Of a stretch of DNA of 64,000 bases, positions 1 through 64,000 are shown in pieces. Where the stretch lies: positions 96,862 through 160,861 of IMG/VR virus record IMGVR_UViG_3300025687_000001. One strand, written 5' to 3'. Position 1 is the first letter of the stretch. Every line of letters begins with the position of its first letter. This stretch comes from a virus. The position numbers and the translations under genes were made by a program. The notes beneath the pieces are model-generated. The model was not told the DNA's origin. It saw only the letters and a list, made by a program, of their open reading frames with translations, and ran no database searches.

Positions 1-3000
1 TCTCAGCTAGCCCTCGGTGCTTTTTTAGGTCCTGTAGCGCGTAGGCGTTAGCCATGGTCTCGTCACGCAGAACCCGAAGCGCTCCCTTGAGAGTGTCCCT
101 CTTAGGCGCTGCGTTCATGTCCGTGCGGATAGCCGCCCGAATCTGATCATCCAGCGTTAGAGCCCCAGACCTGCGGGCTCGATTTTCAAAATCTCGAGCG
201 TGTCCTAGCTCGTGCGCCAGGAACTCCGGGGTGTGCGCCTGCACTGCCTGCCTACGCGAGTAGTCGTAAGTCGGAGACTCAACCCCCCGGTTCATGGGAT
301 GGTTGCGATCTGCCGTAACCCCGAATCCCCCTTCGGGGCTCACATGTACCAGCCCTCTATCGTTGATGATCTTGCGACCGAAGTCCTGCATGTCAGCTTC
401 GACCTTGGCCTTAGCCTGATCTAAGCTGAACCCTTCGGCCATGATGTCCCGAAGGCGCTTATCGCCGTACTCATTGATCTGCTTGCGGTAGTTGTTTACC
501 GCAGCCATGCTGAGTGGCTTGTGAAGGAAGGGCACGGCCCCTGCTGCGCCTAACCCAAGCCCTGCAGCTACCTCGGGTACAGAGACGTCTTCCGGGTTTA
601 CCTTGGACAGGCCGTAAATAGCTCCAGCACCGCCCAGACCGATGGCTCCGCGAGCGATGTTAGGCGCGTGCCGCAGCAACTTGTCTCGTCGCAGCGCAGA
701 TCGCTGCTGCTTTGCTACCTCAGCAATCGCGTCTTCTGTGGACATGCCGGCTGCGCGCAAATCACGAACAGCACGCGCCTTAGCTTCCTCTGGGTCTGGC
801 GTGTACTCGAGCACCGTCTCCAGGCTGGGGTCGCTGGCAATGTCTCTAGGCAACAGGGAGCTGAGGCTCTTGTTCTGCCGAGCCTTGGACGCCGGGTCCA
901 TAGTCCCACCAGGAAGAACTGTGCAAACCCCCCCGGCGCACCGAACCTCCTCGCCTAGTTGACTAGGAGTCTTAGGCTGCTTGTTGGTAAGCTTCCCCCA
1001 CAGCTTAGCAACGGGGTCTGGCACCAAGATTTCTCGCAGCCCACTCTTGACAGACTTGCCTACGCTGTACGTCGGAGCATCTCCGTGCTGGCCGTACATA
1101 GACTGTAGGAACTTAGCTCGGTCCTGCTCCCCTGTCAGGGACGCCATGGCCGGGTCTTTGTGCCGTAGGATCCGCACTCGGCGCTCAGGATTGATACCCG
1201 CGTCACCTATGTCACTCATGACATGGCGTCGATCTGGCGCAATGTCCAGAACCTTGCCGGGTCCCCACCCCACGTTAGCGTGGGTATAGTCAGCAGACCC
1301 TTGAGTCGCCGCCACTAGATTGCGGATAGGGTCACCTTTGTCAGACCCCGAGAGGACGATATCGCCTGGCTTCAAGTTAGCCGTTATGTAGTCAAAGTTG
1401 TGGGTGCTGGTACCCGGCGTGTGCAGCGGAGCCCGACGATTAGTAAGCGCAGTAACCGCAGGCACCCCCGCCGCTACCCCCATGAGGGAGTTGCGTAGCG
1501 CGTGGGACTCCTCATCTTGCTGCCAGGGCAAGGCAGCACCCGTCTTCTCCCCCTCGCGACCTTTGCTGTACTGAACCCCTGCTCCGATGCCACCAATGCC
1601 CGCGCCGATACCTAGTTGCGCCAAGAAGGTGTTATACCCAGACTGCGCTGCGGGCTGCATAGCCCTAGCCACTTCAGGTGGGAGGTGCCCTTTGTCTAAC
1701 TGCTGAAGAGGAGTCAAGGCGGACATGTCCCCCGCCTCAATAGCCTCCCGGACTTTCCTTGAGGCACTGGGAGTACCGAGGTTTCCGCCAGTCTCCATCA
1801 CAGTAGACACTGGCGTCTGCCCAGTAATGAACTCCAGAGAGTCCTTCTCCGGCCGTGTAAGCTTACGACTGTAGCCTTTAGGAGCGCGAGCTGCTTCATC
1901 CAACAGCTTAGTAGCCCGTCTCCCATGATAAACTCCTCGGAAGGGCATAGCAGCGCCCTCCAGGAAACCGCGCCCGAGACCCCGCCAACCCCCCTTAGCT
2001 CCACCCTTGAAACCCTCGATGAGCCCAGTCACCATGCTAGGGACCAACAACCCGCCTCCCGCTAATCCTCCAGCAATGCCCACGCCCTGCTTGAGGTTAT
2101 GCTCTCCCTCAGAGATACCTGCCCGCTGGTTACGTGCCCCATACTCAGACGTCCAGACGCCAAAGGGGCCCAGACCCGCAGCAAAGTCCTGTCCTAGATT
2201 GGTAGGCTTCTCGGACTTCCAGAACGCACTCGTCTTTACGCGCGTAAGCAGCCACTTCCCGTCCTTCGTACGCAGCAGCCGCATCTTTCCCTGGTCAGGC
2301 ACATCGAACTCCACTTTACCTGGCGCAGACGACACCATAGTGTCCGCGTCAAGTATAGCGTCAACCTTGCCTGCCCCGTACGTTCCCTCCGGGATTTCCC
2401 CCGACCACCCCGCGTAGTCCGCTGTGTGGGTAGGCTGAAGCAAAGCAAGCAGCTTCTGTCGCTTCTCGTCGGGCCACTGAGCTCGAGGCACCGCCCAAGA
2501 GTGAGCACGGCTGGTCTCCGGATCAACCAGGCGAAGGTCCCAGTGCTTTCCCGCGCGGTTTGCGTTGTGGAGCTGGGTGGTTAGGCGCCAGTTGGCGTCT
2601 TGGACCTCTGGGATTGGGTGGATTTGGCGGGAGGCGGGGATGCCTGGGGCGAATTCTTCGGAGGACTGCTTCTTCCGAAACCAATTGCCCCCACCCCACC
2701 GATCTTCATAGTCGCCCTCCTCGAAACCCGCTGCAAGGAACGCCTTCCGAGAAGGCTCGTTGCTCGTCTCAATGAACGCAATGCCGTCCCCATGTTTTGC
2801 GACGTGCTCCCGGATGGCCTGCGCGGCCAAGCCCTTCCCTCGGTGCTCCGGCTGAACGTAGATGGCGCCCACCCGGTGCATCCCCGAACCCCTGGACTGG
2901 CGCGGAGTGTGGAACCCCACGATCTCACCATCGACTGTGATTGGAACCCGAACTCTATCCTTGTCCCTGGGGCGTACGTACCCGCGTAGATAAGGCTCCT

Positions 3001-5116
3001 GATTAGCCTCGAGGAGGAGTTTGTAAGGGATACCGGGGGCGAATTCCCCCTGCGGTAACCCTGCCTCCTCCGAGAACTTCTTCAGCTCAGACCTAGCCCA
3101 TGGTGATTCGACTACGTCGTAGTGTCCGCGAAGCTTATCCGCCAGGGTGGTCTTACCAGCGGCCACGTCCCCCATGAGGAAGTTGATCTCGGAGGTCTTA
3201 GTCCGGAGAAGCTCCGCAAAAGGGGCTCCACCAACAGTTCGTACCGCGAAGGCAGGGTTGCCCTGAACATCCCTAGCGGGGCGAACTCGGTACTCCCCCA
3301 AAGGGGCCTCTAGCTCCCGTCTGAATAGAGGCACCTCATACGTAGGGTTCCTAGTGCTAACAACGCTAGTAGGGTCCGCCGTCCTGTTTGAGTCGCGGAC
3401 AAACCTTTCGTAATAGGGTCGATCCCATAAATCAGAGGCCTTGGTTACTGCGTGACTGTGCACCTCCGGGTAACTACCCGCCGCACCAGACCTGGAATAC
3501 GCAAACAACTTACCATCTACAGGTGCCCAGGATGGCTCCCCCACAATTCCAGTGGCATACCCCGCCGCTACGTCCGGGTGTCGAGTAGTGAAGACCAACT
3601 TACCGCCCTCTTCCGGCAGAGCATTGCCCCTGAAGAGCACGTCAGTAGGGCTGCTAGGGTTAGCTAAGATCTCAGCGGACCCTGTACTGGGCAGCAACAC
3701 CTCGTCCGCTGCCGGCAAGTGCTTCCCCTTAGCTCGCTCCCGAATAGAGTCAGTAGCTGCCGCTATGTCCCTACGCACTTGATAGGCAGGCTTGCTTCCA
3801 CTCCATGCATGCGCGCGATAAAGCTCTCTTGCGGCAGAGTCAGCTCTGGCACCTACCCGCCTGCGTTGCGCGTTACCCTCGATTAGCTCGTCTACAACAT
3901 CCCCGGCCCCCCGGCCCGGCTTACCGCTCTCTGGAACACCAAACCGCCTTTCTAGCGCGCCATACCAGTCCTTGCGCTCCTGCCTAGTAGTAGGGTTCAA
4001 CAAGTCCGCTATAGCGGCGTTGGACTTAGGCCCCACATCAGGCCCAGCCGCATGGAGGCGCTTGATCTCCTTAGTAATCCCCGGTCGGACCTCTTCTAAT
4101 AGAGCTAGTGCTTGTCTGGTGCTTGCTCGCGCAGCGTACTTGCTAATAGGAGCCGAGGAGCTCTTCTTAAACTCCCTCCACCTCTCCAACTCCTCCCTCA
4201 AACTCTCCGGCACCCCGCCCTCACGCCCAATACGCGCGTAGATCTCATCCAGGTCAGTAATGCTCGGCTCGCCCTCACGGTGAAGGCCGTACCTATTGAA
4301 CGTGTAGCCCTTCTCTTTAGCTAGGCGCTTGTCGTGGATGATGCCCTTGCCCCGAAGCCACTGAGCTAGCGCGGGCTCGAAGTGTTCCTCAGTGGTCTTG
4401 AAGACATCTACGCCAGGCTGCTTGGGCAGGTCAGTGACCCCCTCCTTAGGGACCACCAGGAGGTCAAGGTCTTTTGGGTCGGGGTGGCCCCTCCCGGTGG
4501 AGCCTACAGTAGCCTGGTAGCGAATTTGGTCTGCTAGGGACTCTGGGGCCGCACCACTCTGCTTAGGAAACAGCGAAGTATACCCAGACCTAAAAACCTC
4601 GGGCAGCGACCCCACGGTGGCCCCCGCCCCCGCCCCACCAAGAAGCGCGATCAGCTTGTGCTTGGGGAGCAGCTTTGTGAAGCCCTTGTTGGGGTGAGCT
4701 GCTTCCCAAATTGCGCCAGACAACGCCCCTGCTGCCGGCGCTACCCCTAGGGCTCGGTCCGTTAGCGTCGGCTCCTGCGATCCCGTGTTCCAGAACGCTT
4801 TCTTCTCCTCCTGCCCGCCAAACAGCGCCCGCACCGCCAAAGCTTCCTCGTCGCTGTACCCGCGCTCGGACCCCTTGTGAGCTCCGCCTACCCAGAGCCT
4901 GTCAGGGTAGAGATGAACCTGCCCCCGCTCAGTGTGCAGTCCGTAGTGCGGGCCGCGCTTGGACTCTCCGAAGTGCGCTCGAGGACCGAACTTGAGATGC
5001 ACCGGTTCGTACTTAGAGCCAGGGCTCCGCTTAGCCGCGCGCTTCTTCTTGAGGCGCTCGATTTCCGCTATGAACTGTAGGAGCTCGTTCTGAGTCGGGG
5101 TACCTTGGTCGTTCAC
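1..5116 (-). CDS. Giant multidomain (polyvalent) protein, >1700 aa, truncated at left edge; PolX-like, ART, P-loop stub, GNAT, LigD phosphoesterase, permuted papain-like, zincin and Gly-rich hydrophobic modules
   Basis: Hand translation from GTG at 5116 gives no stop down to position 1 in one frame. Motifs: GSTGRGHPDPKDLDLLV...AKEKGYTFNRYGL; VLFRG...FTTRHPDVAAGYA...YEV; GDVAAGKTT; IYVQPEHRGKGLA; HNANRAGKHWDLRL...SWAVP...GEIPEGTYGAG; LKPGDIVL...YTHA...VCT...LLPRD; LAHELGH. Confidence 0.9.
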   Translation of the reverse strand, partial: MNDQGTPTQNELLQFIAEIERLKKKRAAKRSPGSKYEPVHLKFGPRAHFGESKRGPHYGLHTERGQVHLYPDRLWVGGAHKGSERGYSDEEALAVRALFGGQEEKKAFWNTGSQEPTLTDRALGVAPAAGALSGAIWEAAHPNKGFTKLLPKHKLIALLGGAGAGATVGSLPEVFRSGYTSLFPKQSGAAPESLADQIRYQATVGSTGRGHPDPKDLDLLVVPKEGVTDLPKQPGVDVFKTTEEHFEPALAQWLRGKGIIHDKRLAKEKGYTFNRYGLHREGEPSITDLDEIYARIGREGGVPESLREELERWREFKKSSSAPISKYAARASTRQALALLEEVRPGITKEIKRLHAAGPDVGPKSNAAIADLLNPTTRQERKDWYGALERRFGVPESGKPGRGAGDVVDELIEGNAQRRRVGARADSAARELYRAHAWSGSKPAYQVRRDIAAATDSIRERAKGKHLPAADEVLLPSTGSAEILANPSSPTDVLFRGNALPEEGGKLVFTTRHPDVAAGYATGIVGEPSWAPVDGKLFAYSRSGAAGSYPEVHSHAVTKASDLWDRPYYERFVRDSNRTADPTSVVSTRNPTYEVPLFRRELEAPLGEYRVRPARDVQGNPAFAVRTVGGAPFAELLRTKTSEINFLMGDVAAGKTTLADKLRGHYDVVESPWARSELKKFSEEAGLPQGEFAPGIPYKLLLEANQEPYLRGYVRPRDKDRVRVPITVDGEIVGFHTPRQSRGSGMHRVGAIYVQPEHRGKGLAAQAIREHVAKHGDGIAFIETSNEPSRKAFLAAGFEEGDYEDRWGGGNWFRKKQSSEEFAPGIPASRQIHPIPEVQDANWRLTTQLHNANRAGKHWDLRLVDPETSRAHSWAVPRAQWPDEKRQKLLALLQPTHTADYAGWSGEIPEGTYGAGKVDAILDADTMVSSAPGKVEFDVPDQGKMRLLRTKDGKWLLTRVKTSAFWKSEKPTNLGQDFAAGLGPFGVWTSEYGARNQRAGISEGEHNLKQGVGIAGGLAGGGLLVPSMVTGLIEGFKGGAKGGWRGLGRGFLEGAAMPFRGVYHGRRATKLLDEAARAPKGYSRKLTRPEKDSLEFITGQTPVSTVMETGGNLGTPSASRKVREAIEAGDMSALTPLQQLDKGHLPPEVARAMQPAAQSGYNTFLAQLGIGAGIGGIGAGVQYSKGREGEKTGAALPWQQDEESHALRNSLMGVAAGVPAVTALTNRRAPLHTPGTSTHNFDYITANLKPGDIVLSGSDKGDPIRNLVAATQGSADYTHANVGWGPGKVLDIAPDRRHVMSDIGDAGINPERRVRILRHKDPAMASLTGEQDRAKFLQSMYGQHGDAPTYSVGKSVKSGLREILVPDPVAKLWGKLTNKQPKTPSQLGEEVRCAGGVCTVLPGGTMDPASKARQNKSLSSLLPRDIASDPSLETVLEYTPDPEEAKARAVRDLRAAGMSTEDAIAEVAKQQRSALRRDKLLRHAPNIARGAIGLGGAGAIYGLSKVNPEDVSVPEVAAGLGLGAAGAVPFLHKPLSMAAVNNYRKQINEYGDKRLRDIMAEGFSLDQAKAKVEADMQDFGRKIINDRGLVHVSPEGGFGVTADRNHPMNRGVESPTYDYSRRQAVQAHTPEFLAHELGHARDFENRARRSGALTLDDQIRAAIRTDMNAAPKRDTLKGALRVLRDETMANAYALQDLKKHRGLAE

Positions 5117-5168
5117 GGCTTATCAGCCCCACATTAAGACTAATTCAGTTATAAGATAATTGACCGAG

Positions 5169-11496: not shown

Positions 11497-11515
11497 TCTG
11501 GTATAAGCGGTTAGC

Positions 11516-53310: not shown

Positions 53311-53685
53311 TTAGCGAGTCAGTTTCTGCCAGGCGCTGTCACCTTCACGCGAGATGGCGGAGCCCTTGGCGGCGCCGTAAGTGCCCCCCAGGCCAGCACC
53401 TAGCAGACCGGCCAGCATTGCGCCTCTCCCCCCTCCAGCGAGGCCTCCCAGCGCTCCCGCCCCCAAGCCGCCTGCGGCCCCTCCCAAGAGACCGCCGCCC
53501 GTCATATGCCCCCACCGGCTCAAGCCTCGACCCTCAGGAGCATTAAACGCTGCGAGCAGAGGCCCGCCTAACAGCGCGTTCCCTACGTCCGTGGAATCAA
53601 TGTCGGCAGCCGCCTTAACAACCCCAGCATCAATCAGCGCCTGCTGCGCGCCAACGTCGTATGCCTGCTTAAGAAACGGGTTCAT
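53311..53685 (-). CDS. Leader-family glycine-zipper protein 1
   Basis: MNPFLKQAYDVGAQQALIDAGVVKAA then GxxxG-rich hydrophobic helices. Confidence 0.75.
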   Translation of the reverse strand: MNPFLKQAYDVGAQQALIDAGVVKAAADIDSTDVGNALLGGPLLAAFNAPEGRGLSRWGHMTGGGLLGGAAGGLGAGALGGLAGGGRGAMLAGLLGAGLGGTYGAAKGSAISREGDSAWQKLTR

Positions 53686-53772: not shown

Positions 53773-54450
53773 TTAGAAACCAATTGCATCGTCGATGGCG
53801 TCCGAGCCCTGGTGGCCGTCCTGCTTAGCGCCGGGGTCCCACGGGAGAAGCCTATCACACATGCCGGAGACGTTCTCCATGATCATGTTCTGCCCGGCGT
53901 TAAGCCCAACAGTCCACTGGTTCATGCAGCACAGCTCTAGGTAAAATCCCCCCAAAGTGTTGTGGCTCTTGTCGCGGAAAGCGATAGCCATCCCGAAGGG
54001 GATGAGCAGAAGCTCCGAGTCAAGGTTAACGAAGTAATCTGTTTGCTTTCCGCGAGGGTGAATGGGCTCATCGAAAGTATCCGGGTCTACCCCGGCTTCG
54101 ATAGCATTACGGTACAGAGCCTTCACCATGTTACGGCCCTTAACGAAGAGCCGCCCCATCTGCCAGGTTAGCGAGCTTTTACCCGATAGGAAAAAGCTGC
54201 GCCCCGACCCGATGGTCTGCACAGGCACGGTAGGCTTAGCCTGCGCCACCTGGAACGCTTGCATCATGCCCACGGCGTACAGCTTGCGCCCCGCAACGTT
54301 GTCGTTGCGCAGCTTCATGCGCGGAGGACCAATCATGACGAGAGTGTCATCCGGGTGCGCGGCTGTGTAGGCCGCGTTGTCCATGATACGCTCTACGTAC
54401 TGGTCCTGGTAGAGCCACGAGTTGAGGTCCTCGGTTACCTTATCAGCCAC
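53773..54450 (-). CDS. Probable tail tube protein
   Basis: 225 aa, downstream of the sheath; beta-rich AVGMMQAF...QTIGSGRSFFLSGK...LELC...IMENVS. Confidence 0.65.
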   Translation of the reverse strand: MADKVTEDLNSWLYQDQYVERIMDNAAYTAAHPDDTLVMIGPPRMKLRNDNVAGRKLYAVGMMQAFQVAQAKPTVPVQTIGSGRSFFLSGKSSLTWQMGRLFVKGRNMVKALYRNAIEAGVDPDTFDEPIHPRGKQTDYFVNLDSELLLIPFGMAIAFRDKSHNTLGGFYLELCCMNQWTVGLNAGQNMIMENVSGMCDRLLPWDPGAKQDGHQGSDAIDDAIGF

Positions 54451-54931
54451 GGTTGTCCTCCGGGTTCATTTCCTTGAGACGCTGGCGGTACCAGTGGGTC
54501 CCGTAGCCGCTGCCTCCAAGGCTACCTAGGATTGCGGGAAGCGCAATCATCTTTGCTCTAGTGTCGTCGCTCAGGTCTGCGCCGAGAGCGTTAGCGAGGG
54601 CGCCTGCGCCCCAGCCTCCAAAAGCGCCTCCGAGGGCTCCTAGCGCTCCACCGCCGATACCCGCACCGGTACCTCCGACAGCGTGCATGATGCGGTCATT
54701 GGGCGCCGTAGCCCCGCTAACGATGCCTCCAGCAAGGGGGCTCAGCAGAGCGCTGGCGGCCGGAGCAGCGTAATCGCCTGCGGTGACCAGCGCGTTTTGC
54801 CCTTTGGGCTTAGCCTTGGGCTTGGACTCAGACTTAGGCTTCTTTTTAGCCTCGTCGTCGGACTTTGCCGCGAACTTCTGGAAGTCCTCCAGCGCCTGCC
54901 GGGCCCCTAACTGGTAAGCAACGTGAAGCAT
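54443..54931 (-). CDS. Leader-family glycine-zipper protein 2
   Basis: MLHVAYQLGARQALEDFQKFAA then Gly-rich hydrophobic helices. Confidence 0.7.
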   Translation of the reverse strand: MLHVAYQLGARQALEDFQKFAAKSDDEAKKKPKSESKPKAKPKGQNALVTAGDYAAPAASALLSPLAGGIVSGATAPNDRIMHAVGGTGAGIGGGALGALGGAFGGWGAGALANALGADLSDDTRAKMIALPAILGSLGGSGYGTHWYRQRLKEMNPEDNRG

Positions 54932-58024: not shown

Positions 58025-58384
58025 CTACTCCCGCATGGCTTTCTCTGTAACGGCACCTGTTAGGGCGCCGCCGAGAATGCCTCCTCCTAGCACCGGCAGA
58101 CCAACAAGCTCGAACATATCAGAGTCCGGCATCCGCTTAGCCCACCGACCCAGGGCCAAGGCGGTAGCAGCGCCCCCTAGGCCTGCGCCTATAGTTGTCC
58201 CGGCCGGGTACGGTGTGTCGCTGTCCTTCTTGTAACTGGCGTAGCCCATAAGCCCGGCCCCAGAGCCCCCTCCGAGGAGAGCGGCAACCAGGTTGGGGTT
58301 GTCCCCCACCCAGGACCGGAACCCTGCTTCCTTAACCGCCAGCTCTACGCCCGCCTCGTAGGCCCGTTTGAGGAAGTAGTTCAT
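58025..58384 (-). CDS. Leader-family glycine-zipper protein 3
   Basis: MNYFLKRAYEAGVELAVKEAG + three Gly-rich helices. Confidence 0.75.
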   Translation of the reverse strand: MNYFLKRAYEAGVELAVKEAGFRSWVGDNPNLVAALLGGGSGAGLMGYASYKKDSDTPYPAGTTIGAGLGGAATALALGRWAKRMPDSDMFELVGLPVLGGGILGGALTGAVTEKAMRE

Positions 58385-59172
58385 TCGGTCAAATCCAGTT
58401 CAACAGCGTAAGCAGCGTCAGCGCGGCTTAGCTCGCTGATCTGCAAATCTTGGTGCACCGTGATCCTGCTGGACTCGGTGGGGATTTTTTGCCTGACGAT
58501 GAAGCGCCGGTTAGTGCGCATCTCCACCAGGACGTCTTCGGGCTCCATCAAAGGATAGTCCAACATGGTAGCACTGAACATAGCACTATCAGTGAGACCA
58601 GTGTTGTCAGCGCGCTGGCTGACTACTGCGGGGTCTAGCTTAGCCCAGATAGTGACGGGGTCGTGGTAGCCGCCGTCGAAGCTGGTGCCGTAGCACTTCC
58701 CACAAGAGCTGAGTACTACGTCTTTAGTGCGGGGGTTGTAGCAGACCGAGCAGCGAGTACCGAACCGCTTGCGCTTGAGAGCTACCAGCTTTACGCCATT
58801 GAGCTTGCGTAACTGGATGTCCAGGTCTCTGCGAGCTTTGCGACCAATACGGCCACGCCACTTGTCTTCCTGGTGAAAGACTGTTTGCGGCGCTGACGCT
58901 GCTGCGTTGTCTGGCCCTGTCTCGGGGATGGCCTGGACAATGTACCAGGCCCGGTTGGTAAGGTTGAGCTGCGGGACGGGCTGGTCCATGTAGAAGAAGT
59001 TGTTGTCGCGAACCTCTTCTTCGGAGACCTGCTCGAAGGGGCCGGTAGGAGACCCGGACCTAAAAATCTTGAAGGTGTAGGGTGTGTTGTCGGGGTTCTC
59101 CATCGTCCACTGGATGAAGACCTCGTGGGGGTAGACGGGCAGTACGCGCGTAATGGTGATTTTGGCGGCCAT
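58381..59172 (-). CDS. Probable neck/head-closure protein (FN3-like + Zn-binding)
   Basis: IQWT...KIFRSGSP..PF; RCSVCY...CGKCYGTSFDGGY; PLMEPEDVLVE..NRRFIV. Confidence 0.6.
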   Translation of the reverse strand: MAAKITITRVLPVYPHEVFIQWTMENPDNTPYTFKIFRSGSPTGPFEQVSEEEVRDNNFFYMDQPVPQLNLTNRAWYIVQAIPETGPDNAAASAPQTVFHQEDKWRGRIGRKARRDLDIQLRKLNGVKLVALKRKRFGTRCSVCYNPRTKDVVLSSCGKCYGTSFDGGYHDPVTIWAKLDPAVVSQRADNTGLTDSAMFSATMLDYPLMEPEDVLVEMRTNRRFIVRQKIPTESSRITVHQDLQISELSRADAAYAVELDLTE

Positions 59173-59597
59173 CAGTCCTCAGTAAGTAGCTTACCTATCC
59201 CCCACCCAGCCCCCGCTCCGGCCCCCAGACCTAGGAGGCCAAGCAGAGATCTGGGTCTTCCTATGTACCTGCCGTGATTCACATCGCGGAAGGCTTCCCC
59301 ACCCTGCACGGATTTACGTAGGTAATGTTGTATTTTGGCGTCATTCGGGTCTATGTCACCCTTAGTTAAGGGCTCTTGTATCCAATTTTCGTACGCCCGG
59401 TCTAGGTTAGAAGCGCCCAGGGACGCTCCTGCCATAGCTGCGGGTACCCCCACCATTGGGGCCCCGATTAATGCTCCTAAGTACGCATCTTTATTATCCT
59501 CATCCATACCCCGGGAGACGTGGCTTAGCATACCCGCCTCCTTAACCGCCAACTCAACCCCAGCAGCGTAGGCCTGCTTCAGGAACTCACTGTTCAC
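59172..59597 (-). CDS. Leader-family glycine-rich protein 4
   Basis: MNSEFLKQAYAAGVELAVKEAG + Gly-rich helices. Confidence 0.75.
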   Translation of the reverse strand: MNSEFLKQAYAAGVELAVKEAGMLSHVSRGMDEDNKDAYLGALIGAPMVGVPAAMAGASLGASNLDRAYENWIQEPLTKGDIDPNDAKIQHYLRKSVQGGEAFRDVNHGRYIGRPRSLLGLLGLGAGAGAGWGIGKLLTED

Positions 59598-59633: not shown

Positions 59634-59951
59634 TCAGAAGGAGGACACTATATCTGACAAGCCCCACCCAAACTGCCCCCAAGGAGACTTCGCCTCATGG
59701 ATAGTTCTCCCAGATAGGCCAGCAAGCCTAGACAGCCCATACCCGGCTCCCGCGCCGATAGCTCCCCCCGCTAAACCTCGCCCCAGGGCTTCCCCAGGAC
59801 TATCCGCAGAGGCTACCCCCACGCTAGCGCCTAGGCCACCCCCTAACACAGGGACAACGGCGTTAGGGTTGCGTAGGAAGTTACCCACCCCGGCCTCCTT
59901 CAGTGCCATAGCGCATCCGGCCTCGTAGGCCTGCTTTAGGAAGTCATTCAT
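59634..59951 (-). CDS. Leader-family glycine-zipper protein 5
   Basis: MNDFLKQAYEAGCAMALKEAG; ATGA overlap with the upstream gene. Confidence 0.75.
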   Translation of the reverse strand: MNDFLKQAYEAGCAMALKEAGVGNFLRNPNAVVPVLGGGLGASVGVASADSPGEALGRGLAGGAIGAGAGYGLSRLAGLSGRTIHEAKSPWGQFGWGLSDIVSSF

Positions 59952-60424
59952 ATGTGGTACCACCCCCGCCAAAGGGGCGACCTAATGAATCCGCTAGCAG
60001 CCATGTTAGACGCGATCTTCATCTGCGAGACATGAGCCCGGAACTCCTGCTTGAGAGACCCCGCTAGCTGCAGGTACTGACCGTACTTGTCATCAATGCC
60101 CACGGGCTGGATGTTGCCGTCCTGGTAGCTGGCCTGGTTGCGCAGCTGACGGAAGGCCTCGCTCTGCATGAGGTAGTGAGCGGCCCCCGTTAGAAGCACA
60201 TACTTGTTAGGGAACGTAGCAGAAGTCCAGTTAGTGGCGCGATCCACAACATTGGCAATGTCCACAGCGCGGTCGATGGCGGTAGCGAGCTCAGTGTCAG
60301 AGAACTCTACGTCATCGAGCAGGGGGTTGTGGCCAGTGTAGTCCCGCAGAAAGTCACGCACCTCTGTTGTCGAGATGATTCCCGCGGGTGCTGGTGACGC
60401 TACTGGAGTTGCTACTACTGGCAT
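59948..60424 (-). CDS. Probable head-tail adaptor (neck) protein
   Basis: EVRDFLRD...NPLLDDVEFSDTEL, helical, RNQASYQDG; position in the neck module. Confidence 0.65.
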   Translation of the reverse strand: MPVVATPVASPAPAGIISTTEVRDFLRDYTGHNPLLDDVEFSDTELATAIDRAVDIANVVDRATNWTSATFPNKYVLLTGAAHYLMQSEAFRQLRNQASYQDGNIQPVGIDDKYGQYLQLAGSLKQEFRAHVSQMKIASNMAASGFIRSPLWRGWYHI

Positions 60425-62147: not shown

Positions 62148-64000
62148 TTAAGCCAGAACGACGGCCTCGCCAGGCTGGATGAAGACAGCGTCTGCGCCGA
62201 TGGCGTACCCAACCTTCAGAACAACGTCCCCCGCGTCCGAGGGAGCGGTCTGGGTCAGTTCACCTGCGGTGAGGCTGAGGAAGACCTCGCCACCCGCGGT
62301 GAACGCCCCGCCGCCCGAGGGGCCACTGACCTTGCCTGCCACCGCGACGCGGATGTCGTCAGCGGTGTTCTCCGCGGAGGAGTCGAGAGCGAAGCCCACG
62401 AACTTGGAGCTGGCTTCCGCGTCCGCGTCACACAGGTTGACGGTACCCGAGCTATCGATGTAGAGGGCATCACCCACCGCGATGGCTGCGTGCGTCGCCG
62501 GGGTGCTGAAGCGCACACAGACGGGAGCGTCAACCGCGCCGGTGGCCCCAACCGTCAGGGCACCGGAACCGAGGAGGTTGAAGTCCGGGTTGGTGGCGGC
62601 GTTACCAAGAACCACGGCCGCACCGGTGTTGCTGGTATCCACCAGGAAGTAGTTGTTAGTCGACTCCGCGACCTTGAAGGCCTGGCCGGAGTCGTCAACT
62701 ACCGCCATGGAGAACGCACCGCCAGAGGTCAGGGCGATGGAATCCGCGTCCAAGGTGTGCGCACCAACGTTGACGTCAAACGCGCCTGTAGTAGTGATGT
62801 CCACCTCGCCAGCGTTGCCAACCAAGTTGACCCCGCCCGCACCGTCCAGGCTAAGAGCCCCGGCTACGGTCGACCAGGTGGCCGCAGCCGCCGAGGTCAG
62901 CGTCAGCGCTCCCGCGGACGTGGTCAGGCTCGAAGCCGCGTTAGCGGTCAGGGTGGCAGCGCCCCCCGAGAGGGTGAGATCGCCACCGCTGACGTCCAGC
63001 CCGGCGTCAGCGTCCAGGTTGGCGCTGGCAGTGATGACGCTGGCCCCGGAGCCCACGACCATCTCCGCCTCGTGCCCCAACCAGACAATGGAGGTGGACG
63101 AGTCCGCACCAGCGTTGTCCGTGCCGTGGAAGTAGAGGAACGCGTCGAGGTCAACGGCGGAATCGGCTGTGAGGCCGATCTGCATGCTGGCCGAGATGGC
63201 GGTGCCATCATCGTCCATGCCGAACTCGATGACGGGAGCCCCGGTGTCGCCCGCGACGTTGTACATGCTGGCCGAGAAGACCGAGTTGGTCTCCCCAACA
63301 GCGTCGCCCGACTTCAGAACGATGCCCGCGTCCTCCTCCGTGCCCTGCGCGGAGTCGTTGTTGACCGTGAACACCAGAGCGTTGGTGCTGGGAACGCTGA
63401 TCTCGCCAGCGTTGAGCGCCCCATCCTTGGTGATCTGGACGAGCCCAGCGTCGCTGTGGAAGAAGAGCTCCTCGTCCGAGCCATCGACGGCAACGTAAAT
63501 CCGACCGTCGCCATCCGCGGGAGCCCCGGGAGCAGCAATGGCGTCGAAATCCATGTAACCCGAGGACTTCACGTTATCCGAGCTGAGGGTACCAGTGGTG
63601 CTCAGGTTCTCGTTGCCGAAGTCAATCGCGCCACTGGAGTCAGTGATGCTCCCGTTCGCCAGGGTCAGGTTGCCGACCGAAGAACCAGAGGCCAGGGTGG
63701 CGACGCCGGCGCCCAGAGTACCAGTGGTGCTCAGGTTCTCGTCGCCGAAGTCAATCGCGCCACTGGAGTCAGTGATGCTCCCGTTCGCCAGGGTCAGGTT
63801 GCCGACCGAAGAACCAGAGGCCAGGGTGGCGACGCCGGCGCCCAGAGTACCAGTGGTGCTCAGGTTCTCGTCGCCGAAGTCAATCGCGCCACTGGAGTCA
63901 GTGATGCTCCCGTTCGCCAGGGTCAGGTTGCCGACCGAAGAACCAGAGGCCAGGGTGGCGACGCCGGCGCCCAGAGTACCAGTGGTGCTCAGGTTCTCGT
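62148..64000 (-). CDS. Fibre/decoration-like structural protein, truncated at right edge
   Basis: Frame stays open from 63572 to the window end; G/A/T/S-rich beta repeats; C-terminal AIAVGDALYI...VGFAL...G.VFLS..AGELT..AP...VGYAI capsid-cement/fibre-like domain. Confidence 0.75.
   Translation of the reverse strand, partial: ENLSTTGTLGAGVATLASGSSVGNLTLANGSITDSSGAIDFGDENLSTTGTLGAGVATLASGSSVGNLTLANGSITDSSGAIDFGDENLSTTGTLGAGVATLASGSSVGNLTLANGSITDSSGAIDFGNENLSTTGTLSSDNVKSSGYMDFDAIAAPGAPADGDGRIYVAVDGSDEELFFHSDAGLVQITKDGALNAGEISVPSTNALVFTVNNDSAQGTEEDAGIVLKSGDAVGETNSVFSASMYNVAGDTGAPVIEFGMDDDGTAISASMQIGLTADSAVDLDAFLYFHGTDNAGADSSTSIVWLGHEAEMVVGSGASVITASANLDADAGLDVSGGDLTLSGGAATLTANAASSLTTSAGALTLTSAAAATWSTVAGALSLDGAGGVNLVGNAGEVDITTTGAFDVNVGAHTLDADSIALTSGGAFSMAVVDDSGQAFKVAESTNNYFLVDTSNTGAAVVLGNAATNPDFNLLGSGALTVGATGAVDAPVCVRFSTPATHAAIAVGDALYIDSSGTVNLCDADAEASSKFVGFALDSSAENTADDIRVAVAGKVSGPSGGGAFTAGGEVFLSLTAGELTQTAPSDAGDVVLKVGYAIGADAVFIQPGEAVVLA
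63589..64000 (-). repeat. 129-bp (43-aa) near-identical tandem repeats, at least 3.2 copies
   Basis: ctcaggttct recurs at 63601, 63730, 63859 and 63988; unit DENLSTTGTLGAGVATLASGSSVGNLTLANGSITDSSGAIDFG. Confidence 0.95.

Follow-up and report, generated by a model that had tools for sequence, protein, structure and literature searches.

Lys-x-Ala/Ser as the likely recognition code of a phage prohead protease and as a motif at the joints of a giant polyvalent protein

The window analyzed here (64,000 nucleotides, positions 96,862 to 160,861 of the IMG/VR record IMGVR_UViG_3300025687_000001) corresponds to the final 64 kb of a viral genome from a freshwater sample that is complete at 160,861 bp and has direct terminal repeats; it opens within the gene of a giant, multidomain protein. 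Short motifs of the form Lys-x-small, K-x-[ASG], stand at the joints between the modules of this protein, and K-x-A abounds in the head proteins of the same phage and flanks the catalytic domain of its prohead protease. From these patterns, it appears quite likely that K-x-A is the recognition code of the prohead protease of this phage. That the giant protein itself is cut at its joints inside proheads can be given a probability of roughly 0.6. The support for the motif reading is comparative and statistical, and we infer cleavage, packaging and injection from it.

Modular architecture of the giant protein

The first 1705 codons of the giant gene occupy positions 2–5116 of the window on the minus strand, with a GTG start codon at 5116; the gene continues past the window start and, in genome coordinates, spans 95309–101977 (minus strand) and encodes a product of 2222 amino acids (aa). 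Pfam recognizes a GNAT acetyltransferase (residues 721–801) and a LigD_N 3'-phosphoesterase (residues 848–919), and inspection by eye adds an ADP-ribosyltransferase (ART)-like region, a short P-loop piece, the sequence HELGH (residues 1634–1638) and several Gly-rich hydrophobic stretches. Sequence searches against solved structures yielded nothing usable for the ART-like, papain-like/HExxH and module 3 regions, and neither of the two candidate peptidases, the HExxH segment and the papain-like units, was matched in Pfam or in the solved-structure searches.

Searches of the phage collection, the viral contigs, a related phage of 162 kb and proteins similar in length found no full-length homologue of the giant protein, so that the joints were compared via module-level homologues. 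The module edges were set independently of the motif, from the internal repeat and from the envelopes of 1426 database homologues, which came from a full HMMER search with residues 1–1200 of the giant protein against 1.8 billion representative proteins. The envelope edges are 6–107, 186/195–317/322, 456–643, 690/699–817/825, 812/821–957/964 and 961/972–1191/1193, and the modules defined by homology cover residues 6–107, 108–185, 186–322, ~323–643 and 644–682 in the N-terminal part, followed by 690–820, 812–964, 961–1193 and a tandem duplication (1200–1755 and 1756–2222). The protein includes at least nine modules, each with a separate set of homologues and with shuffled neighbors in relatives; hundreds of other proteins contain these modules in different assemblies, and by definition the giant protein qualifies as a polyvalent protein.

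The tandem duplication takes up the C-terminal 1020 residues (within residues 1194–2222; genome 95309–98400, in part window 2–1540), with residues 1200–1561 matching 1756–2125 and residues 1681–1758 matching 2138–2216. Each unit of ~470–560 aa contains a DEESH..RNSLM stretch, a papain-like region with Cys and two hydrophobic, Gly-rich segments, and only the first copy has the HELGH segment, as an insert. The P-loop module (residues 643–682, window 3071–3199; Walker A sequence G-D-V-A-A-G-K-T-T) consists of only ~40 residues; in the closest homologue, P0009, the same P-loop start extends into a full-length kinase-like domain. Judging from this comparison, the 40-aa module looks like a remnant of recombination at the joints.

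The Lys-x-small motif at the module joints

The nine junctions between modules make up ~6% of the chain, and all nine hold K-x-[ASG]. Among the 19 matches to K-x-[AS] in the giant protein, nine are inside junctions (binomial p = 5.6e-7), and for the refined pattern K[^PG][AS][ASGE], the count is eight of 10 (p = 7e-9). The corresponding counts for the control motifs are 0 of 34 for R-x-[AS], 0 of 22 for D-x-[AS], 0 of 41 for [LIV]-x-E and 5 of 33 for [SAG]-x-E. Enrichment of K-x-[AS] at domain boundaries relative to shuffled and control motifs, which the original prediction from the sequence of the window had proposed as a check, is therefore observed. Over its full length, the giant protein has about as many K-x-[ASG] as chance would give (32, compared with 35.6 +/- 5.0 after shuffling), and K-x-A by itself is underrepresented (7 vs 15 expected, P = 0.013), as it would be if stray sites inside domains were selected against. 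Codes with Glu were the first alternative considered, given the phiKZ-like RNA polymerase genes of this genome and its protease similar to gp21; both the T4-type [LIV]-x-E and the phiKZ-type [SAG]-x-E codes were rejected by the junction statistics and by those for the module anchors described below.

All the in-window junction motifs are encoded on the minus strand. K105-K-A107 (4796–4804) separates the N-terminal module from Gly-rich module 1; P0009 has K-K-A-A at the equivalent edge, followed by a different module. K185-Q-S187 (4556–4564) stands between Gly-rich module 1 and module 3, the homologues of which begin at residues 186–195 of the giant protein, and the end of module 3 carries K317-K-S-S320 (4157–4168), which comprises two overlapping motifs, K317-K-S and K318-S-S. 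The junction of the ART-like module with the P-loop remnant holds K640-T-S642 (3191–3199); in other proteins, L-R-T-K-Q-A-E is found at the end of the ART-like module (P0041) and K-T-A-E before the P-loop module (P0009). K680-F-S682 (3071–3079) lies between the P-loop remnant and the GNAT module, and GNAT homologues have K-x-[AS] 5–10 residues ahead of the module core. Then come K816-Q-S818 (2663–2671), between the GNAT module and the LigD-type phosphoesterase, with EFAPGIP next, and K961-T-S963 (2228–2236), between the phosphoesterase and Gly-rich module 2, with A-F-W next. In an AlphaFold model of residues 600–1000, K816-Q-S opens a 22-residue coil that separates the confidently folded GNAT and phosphoesterase domains, and the final strand of the phosphoesterase extends to residue 959, where coil takes over, with K961-T-S just beyond that strand. 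K1191-T-G1193 (1538–1546) is located where Gly-rich module 2 ends and the first C-terminal repeat unit starts; P0009 has K-V-A-A before the DEESH..RNSLM unit, and the paralogous junction within the giant protein carries K1753-T-S1755 (genome 96713–96721, outside the window).

The nine motifs on which the original prediction was built (KRAA, KKAF, KQSG, KKSS, KTSE, KFSE, KQSS, KTSA and KTGA) all begin at the codons assigned to them, and both Gly-rich modules indeed open with FW directly after the motif (KKA-FWNT and KTSA-FWKS). The claim that the motifs fall at module edges holds for eight of these sites, which are at homology-defined junctions, and fails for KRAA at residue 25, which is at no verified edge. 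This motif, K25-R-A27 (5036–5044, minus strand), has a flank score of −6.6 under the matrix introduced in the next section and is not kept in P0009; on these comparisons, it is probably not a cut site.

Conservation of the motif and the position of the cut

For the phosphoesterase module, the comparison included 59 representatives, obtained by clustering at 50% identity, that have enough upstream sequence. The module start is nearly always EFAPGIP, and K-x-[AS] is found no more than 12 residues before the FAPGI anchor in 37 of the 59 (63%), against a background of 9.9% (p = 6.5e-23). With Gly admitted (K-x-[ASG]), the number is 44 of 59. The motif is present regardless of the upstream context, with a peak at −4 to −7, whereas the Arg, Glu, [SAG]-x-E and [LIV]-x-E controls before the same anchor are at background. 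Among the homologues of the Gly-rich modules, 30 of 36 have K-x-[ASG] ahead of a QDF anchor, with the mode at −9. The consensus of the motif is [L/M]-x-K-[T/L/V/S]-A-[A/S]-[A/E], in which position −2 is hydrophobic and position +3 is Ser or Ala.

Leaderless homologues of the same modules point to the bond that would be cut. Leaderless Gly-module proteins consist of Met and six further residues ahead of QDF, that is, the remainder expected from a cut after K-x-A, and leaderless phosphoesterase proteins have Met and 0–2 residues ahead of EFAPGIP. These homologues start exactly one residue past the motif, which favors a cut after the small residue, K(P3)-x-A(P1)↓S/A. The scissile bond is thus probably K-x-A↓S/A, after the small residue as in herpesviruses and not after Glu.

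When a scoring matrix was trained exclusively on the sequences that flank K-x-A sites in other phages, the head proteins of this genome ranked at the top. In the giant protein, the same matrix splits the junction sites from the other K-x-[ASG] occurrences (median −1.1 vs −7.2; Mann–Whitney p = 1.6e-4), with K318 as the top-scoring site. Four of the five largest viral contigs that contain the phosphoesterase module also encode the clade of prohead proteases to which we now turn.

The prohead protease

The search for a prohead protease, also proposed along with the original prediction, was successful: a gene outside the window (genome 7216–8988) encodes a 590-aa protein that matches PHROG 18299 ('head maturation protease', E = 1.6e-10) and for which the structural model is T4 gp21-like. 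By tblastn, this protein is connected to Rhodococcus phage E3 gp77 ('prohead protease') and to a 'capsid maturation protease' of Gordonia phage Stormageddon, and no match was detected in Pfam. The AlphaFold model of the N-terminal domain (pLDDT 75, pTM 0.70) is folded only at approximately residues 39–209; the top Foldseek matches are T4 gp21 chains from 5jbl (E = 9e-4, probability 1.00, TM 0.58), followed by herpesvirus proteases. H100 and S151, the latter in A-V-S-M-G, are invariant in 38 sequences and are candidate catalytic residues. The assignment of the protease to the gp21/assemblin superfamily is supported by fold, context and homology.

The motif is conserved on both sides of the catalytic domain. 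In an alignment of 120 homologues that are 57–81% identical, K37 is present in all 120, A39 in 115 and S40 in 118, within an N-terminal segment that is variable and gapped around them; K37-x-A39-S40 stands just before the protease fold. At the end of the domain, K220-V-A222 is invariant and a gapped region comes next, and K240-x-A242 and K253-A-A255 are nearly invariant or invariant. Altogether, 2474 homologues of the protease were found. The lineage is large and mostly uncultured; the few members in culture are Salmonella phage Arash, Vibrio phage D69 and cluster C mycobacteriophages.

The motif in the head-gene block

The protease gene belongs to a head module, between a portal-like gene (genome 28184–29911) and the capsid-like gene g009 (genome 3769–4707), and is adjacent to the scaffold-like g012 (genome 6591–7142). 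Arash has the same order of head genes, with an annotated major capsid protein. In Pfam and PHROGs, the scaffold-like and capsid-like proteins have no match. The portal-like gene and the phiKZ-like split RNA polymerase genes are all in the part of the genome outside the window.

Genome-wide, Ala at the second position after Lys is not enriched (1.08-fold). The three most K-x-A-enriched proteins of the entire genome, namely g012 (11 of 14 Lys residues, p = 2.7e-5), g020 (12 of 20) and g017 (8 of 13), are all inside the head-gene block that contains the protease gene. Across seven head-module proteins, Ala occupies this position for 53 of 115 Lys residues (46%), compared with 6–18% at other offsets, 12% after Arg and 9.7% in the rest of the proteome. 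Of the Lys-x-small code as first proposed, Lys-x-Ala holds in the head proteins, whereas Gly is rare and the frequent Ser of the giant protein is atypical.

Similar enrichment near the homologous protease is detected in a second uncultured phage, L008 (four proteins around the protease, p = 1e-3 to 1e-5), in Arash (gp220, gp223 and gp225) and in D69; the motif fills protease-adjacent scaffold-like proteins in four separate phage genomes. In mycobacteriophage Rizal, gp94 has a long C-terminal extension rich in K-x-A (19 vs 8 expected). The capsid proteins of the phage analyzed here, Arash and D69 share [R/L]-[V/T]-K-E-A at residues 26–33.

Several observations outside the window accompany these results. 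Rizal gp94 (NC_011272, 8971–13083), encoded two genes upstream of the major head protein gene, is noted as a 'tape measure' but has an N-terminal prohead-protease domain, so the annotation looks like an error. Between the scaffold-like and capsid genes of the present genome, a Gly-rich 200-aa protein (genome 5985–6587, minus strand) contains S-T-K-E-A-F-W at residues 30–36, the same K-x-A-F-W start as in the two Gly-rich modules of the giant protein. Arash gp224, which is Gly-rich and occupies a similar position in the head module, has been detected in virions (PMC10585845). Distant from the head module, a 331-aa protein (genome 50760–51755, minus strand) has K-x-A at eight of 20 Lys residues (p = 8e-3), with three high-scoring sites, and by this composition may be a further substrate of the protease.

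Small Gly-zipper proteins

A family of small Gly-zipper proteins with at least nine members in this genome, none of which is matched in Pfam or PHROGs, includes five proteins for which K-x-A was originally held to end a leader. In three of the five, the motif indeed falls in one aligned column (A-[VL]-K-E-A-G), namely K18-E-A20 (58325–58333) in the protein encoded at 58025–58384, K19-E-A21 (59535–59543) in the one at 59172–59597, and K-E-A (59892–59900) in the one at 59634–59972. In the other two, it comes 3–4 residues later, off the K-E-A column: K24-A-A26 (53608–53616; protein encoded at 53311–53685), with a flank score of +3.6, and K19-F-A21 (54869–54877; protein encoded at 54443–54931). 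All five motifs are on the minus strand. The V-K-E-A-G context of K18-E-A20 corresponds to the conserved site near the N-terminus of the major capsid protein in Arash and D69. A second K-x-A is present at the very start of three of the five proteins (F-L-K-[QR]-A-Y), and several further family members also start with hydrophobic-K-x-A-Y.

The notion of a leader applies only in part. The AY..G...AL pattern also occurs internally in homologous polyproteins, where the Y..G...L..G helix directly follows a K-x-A joint, and therefore this segment is better described as the first, N-terminal helix of a Gly-zipper module than as a removable leader alone. Beyond short motifs, no significant similarity was detected between the small Gly-rich proteins and the Gly modules of the giant protein. 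One member of the family, a 131-aa protein that begins M-F-K-E-A-Y-D-A-G-C-A-Q-A-L-I-D-F-G, is encoded directly downstream of the giant gene (genome 94685–95080, minus strand); this arrangement suggests that the two proteins are expressed together.

A proposed processing pathway

A single mechanism would accommodate these patterns. The motif, hydrophobic-x-Lys-x-Ala(Ser)-Ser/Ala, would be the recognition site of the phage's own head-maturation serine protease of the gp21/assemblin fold. The targets would be the protease itself, trimmed on either side of the catalytic domain, the scaffold-like core proteins, cut into short fragments, the capsid protein, shortened by ~30 residues at the N-terminus, and the Gly-zipper proteins, which would be trimmed. 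The giant protein would be loaded into the prohead, cut there into ~10 pieces and delivered with the DNA. The predicted pieces, of ~80, 80, 132, 323, 40, 136, 145, 230, 562 and 467 residues, include the N-terminal domain, two Gly-zipper membrane modules, a 132-aa module, a 323-aa ART-like piece, the 40-aa P-loop remnant, the GNAT acetyltransferase, the LigD-type 3'-phosphoesterase and two large papain-like/transmembrane units, one of these with HExxH.

A broader evolutionary scenario, under which this protease lineage switched from Glu at P1 to K-x-A↓S/A, and cassettes of enzymes and Gly-zipper membrane modules, bounded by the motif, were freely shuffled into polyproteins that enter the capsid, are cut there and are injected as a mixture of products, is tentative, with the odds slightly below even.

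Alternative explanations

Several observations weigh against cleavage of the giant protein in the prohead. The giant gene is far from the head module, and no recognizable capsid-targeting peptide was found at the N-terminus of its product. An ATAAG box is located 2–10 nucleotides before the start codon in 13 of the 182 called genes (~1.5 expected), among them the giant gene (window 5117–5160), its divergent neighbor and, for example, those at 11503, 14254, 31938, 45723 and 51701; this promoter-like box is common mainly to non-structural genes, mostly on the plus strand, and no sigma-70-like site is present upstream of the giant gene, which, from its upstream sequence, may be outside the late structural class. 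The joints of the giant protein have mostly Ser (at eight junctions), and Gly at one, where close homologues have Ala, and Ala is nearly exclusive in the head proteins g012, g017 and g020, in which the count of K-x-S is zero; the sites of the giant protein may, on this ground, be poor substrates or relics. Some homologues of the phosphoesterase module lack the motif at the joint. Finally, the study of Arash virions lists gp220–225 and a 2548-aa protein, without cleavage analysis (PMC10585845).

Much of this evidence would also fit a model in which K-x-A is a true code of the head proteins, but the joints of the giant protein are inherited scars: cassettes of the form 'leader, K-x-A, module' would have been joined by recombination, leaving the motif in between, and the protein, unpackaged or uncut, would act as one chain in the infected cell. 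The Ser or Gly at the joints, the remoteness from the head genes along with the promoter-like box, the P-loop remnant, which shows recombination exactly at the joints, and the lack of a full-length homologue all speak for such scars. We nevertheless regard them as rather unlikely, given that the domain interiors are poor in K-x-A, that all nine joints retain Lys and a small residue, and that the flanks of the joints still resemble the sites in head proteins. Less probable still is an uncut docking peptide that would bind the inner capsid surface, the portal or the scaffold and mark proteins for incorporation. The numerous copies of the motif in scaffold-like proteins and the conserved hydrophobic residue at −2 suit a binding peptide, and the capsid-targeting sequences of T4 work by binding (PMC9026906), but docking is disfavored by the motif bracketing the catalytic domain of the protease in disordered, otherwise variable segments, by leaderless homologues that begin exactly past it, and by its position near the N-terminus of the capsid protein, the site of maturation cuts in related systems.

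Processing by peptidases embedded in the giant protein, either HExxH (residues 1634–1638) or the two papain-like units, instead of the prohead protease, appears very improbable. The HELGH motif and two Cys-containing repeat units are there, and zincin-mediated autoprocessing of polyvalent proteins has been predicted (Iyer et al. 2017, PMC5512222), but neither peptidase is confirmed by a profile or solved-structure match, and the motif, which flanks the prohead protease itself, is also densely present in head proteins of phages, and in other proteins, in which such domains are missing. A chance origin, or the ordinary composition of flexible linkers, in which Lys, Ser and Ala are common, would agree with the overall count of K-x-[ASG] being at expectation; it is hardly credible, as the motif peaks at specific positions in independent homologues and is invariant in the protease alignments, and the controls with Arg, Glu and Asp are negative. 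Cutting of the giant protein by the prohead protease remains the reading that we favor.

A repeat at the genome end

The last open reading frame (ORF) of the window (62148–63998) includes at least three tandem copies of a ~42-aa unit, ENLSTTGTLGAGVATLASGSSVGNLTLANGSITDSSGAIDFG. The unit runs on across the genome end into the terminal-repeat region (genome 29–517), and the number of copies may therefore reflect an artefact of assembly.

Comparison with known systems

To our knowledge, experiments have established the specificity of prohead proteases in only a few phages, and within the T4/phiKZ group the cut is always after Glu. A limited literature search found no published report of a K-x-A prohead-protease motif.

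The gp21 protease of T4 breaks the scaffold proteins down into numerous fragments, cleaves off N-terminal targeting peptides and also processes Alt, a packaged ADP-ribosyltransferase (PMC9026906). Generally, head maturation in T4 and in phiKZ/SPN3US involves multiple cuts in the scaffold, self-cleavage of the protease and the loss of short N-terminal peptides from the capsid and internal proteins (PMC9026906, PMC10052503). Compared with the T4 substrates (the scaffold proteins gp22, gp67 and gp68, the internal proteins IPI–III and Alt), the system described here is similar in the fold of the protease (5jbl), the three-residue motif, the many sites in the scaffold, the sites near the capsid protein N-terminus and the protease ends, the short N-terminal peptides on small internal proteins, and an ADP-ribosyltransferase-type enzyme as candidate cargo (PMC9026906). 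The differences are in the code and in the cargo: T4 cuts after Glu in L/I-x-E, a pattern that, as given above, is missing from the joints, where the motif is K-x-A/S followed by Ser/Ala, and T4 packages single enzymes, whereas here the candidate is a ten-module chain.

With phiKZ gp175 and SPN3US gp245, the latter of which cuts after A-x-E (PMC10052503), the resemblance is that of large phages with split multisubunit RNA polymerase genes and with numerous head proteins that have propeptides bearing repeated copies of the motif (PMC10052503). The P1 residue in those phages is Glu (S/A/G-x-E or A-x-E), whereas here [SAG]-x-E is weakly associated with the joints and unenriched before the anchors. 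Membership of the present protease in the group that cuts after Glu is contradicted by these sequence comparisons.

The maturation and release sites of herpesvirus assemblins are (V/L/I)-x-A↓S. Assemblin belongs to the same fold superfamily, and the Ala↓Ser/Ala bond proposed here is in the same P3-x-P1 register; the difference is that P3 is Lys instead of an aliphatic residue, and the cut after Ala is deduced solely from the starts of the leaderless homologues.

Polyvalent proteins, similarly to the giant protein, combine many unrelated enzymatic domains in one phage polypeptide (here, GNAT, phosphoesterase, ART-like and peptidase-like), with shuffled modules and predicted delivery with the DNA (PMC5512222). 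The work of Iyer et al. (2017, PMC5512222) proposes that embedded zincin peptidases process them and describes no junction motif. The giant protein differs in that its joints appear to carry the code of the capsid protease.

Implications

The idea is directly testable because Arash and Vibrio phages are in culture and a mass-spectrometry data set on Arash virions exists. If the idea is correct, the Lys-x-Ala rule would make the mature virion proteins predictable for thousands of uncultured phages and for the cluster C mycobacteriophages, and the specificities of phage and herpesvirus proteases would be tied together. Polyvalent effectors would then have a second route of processing, beside that by embedded zincin peptidases.

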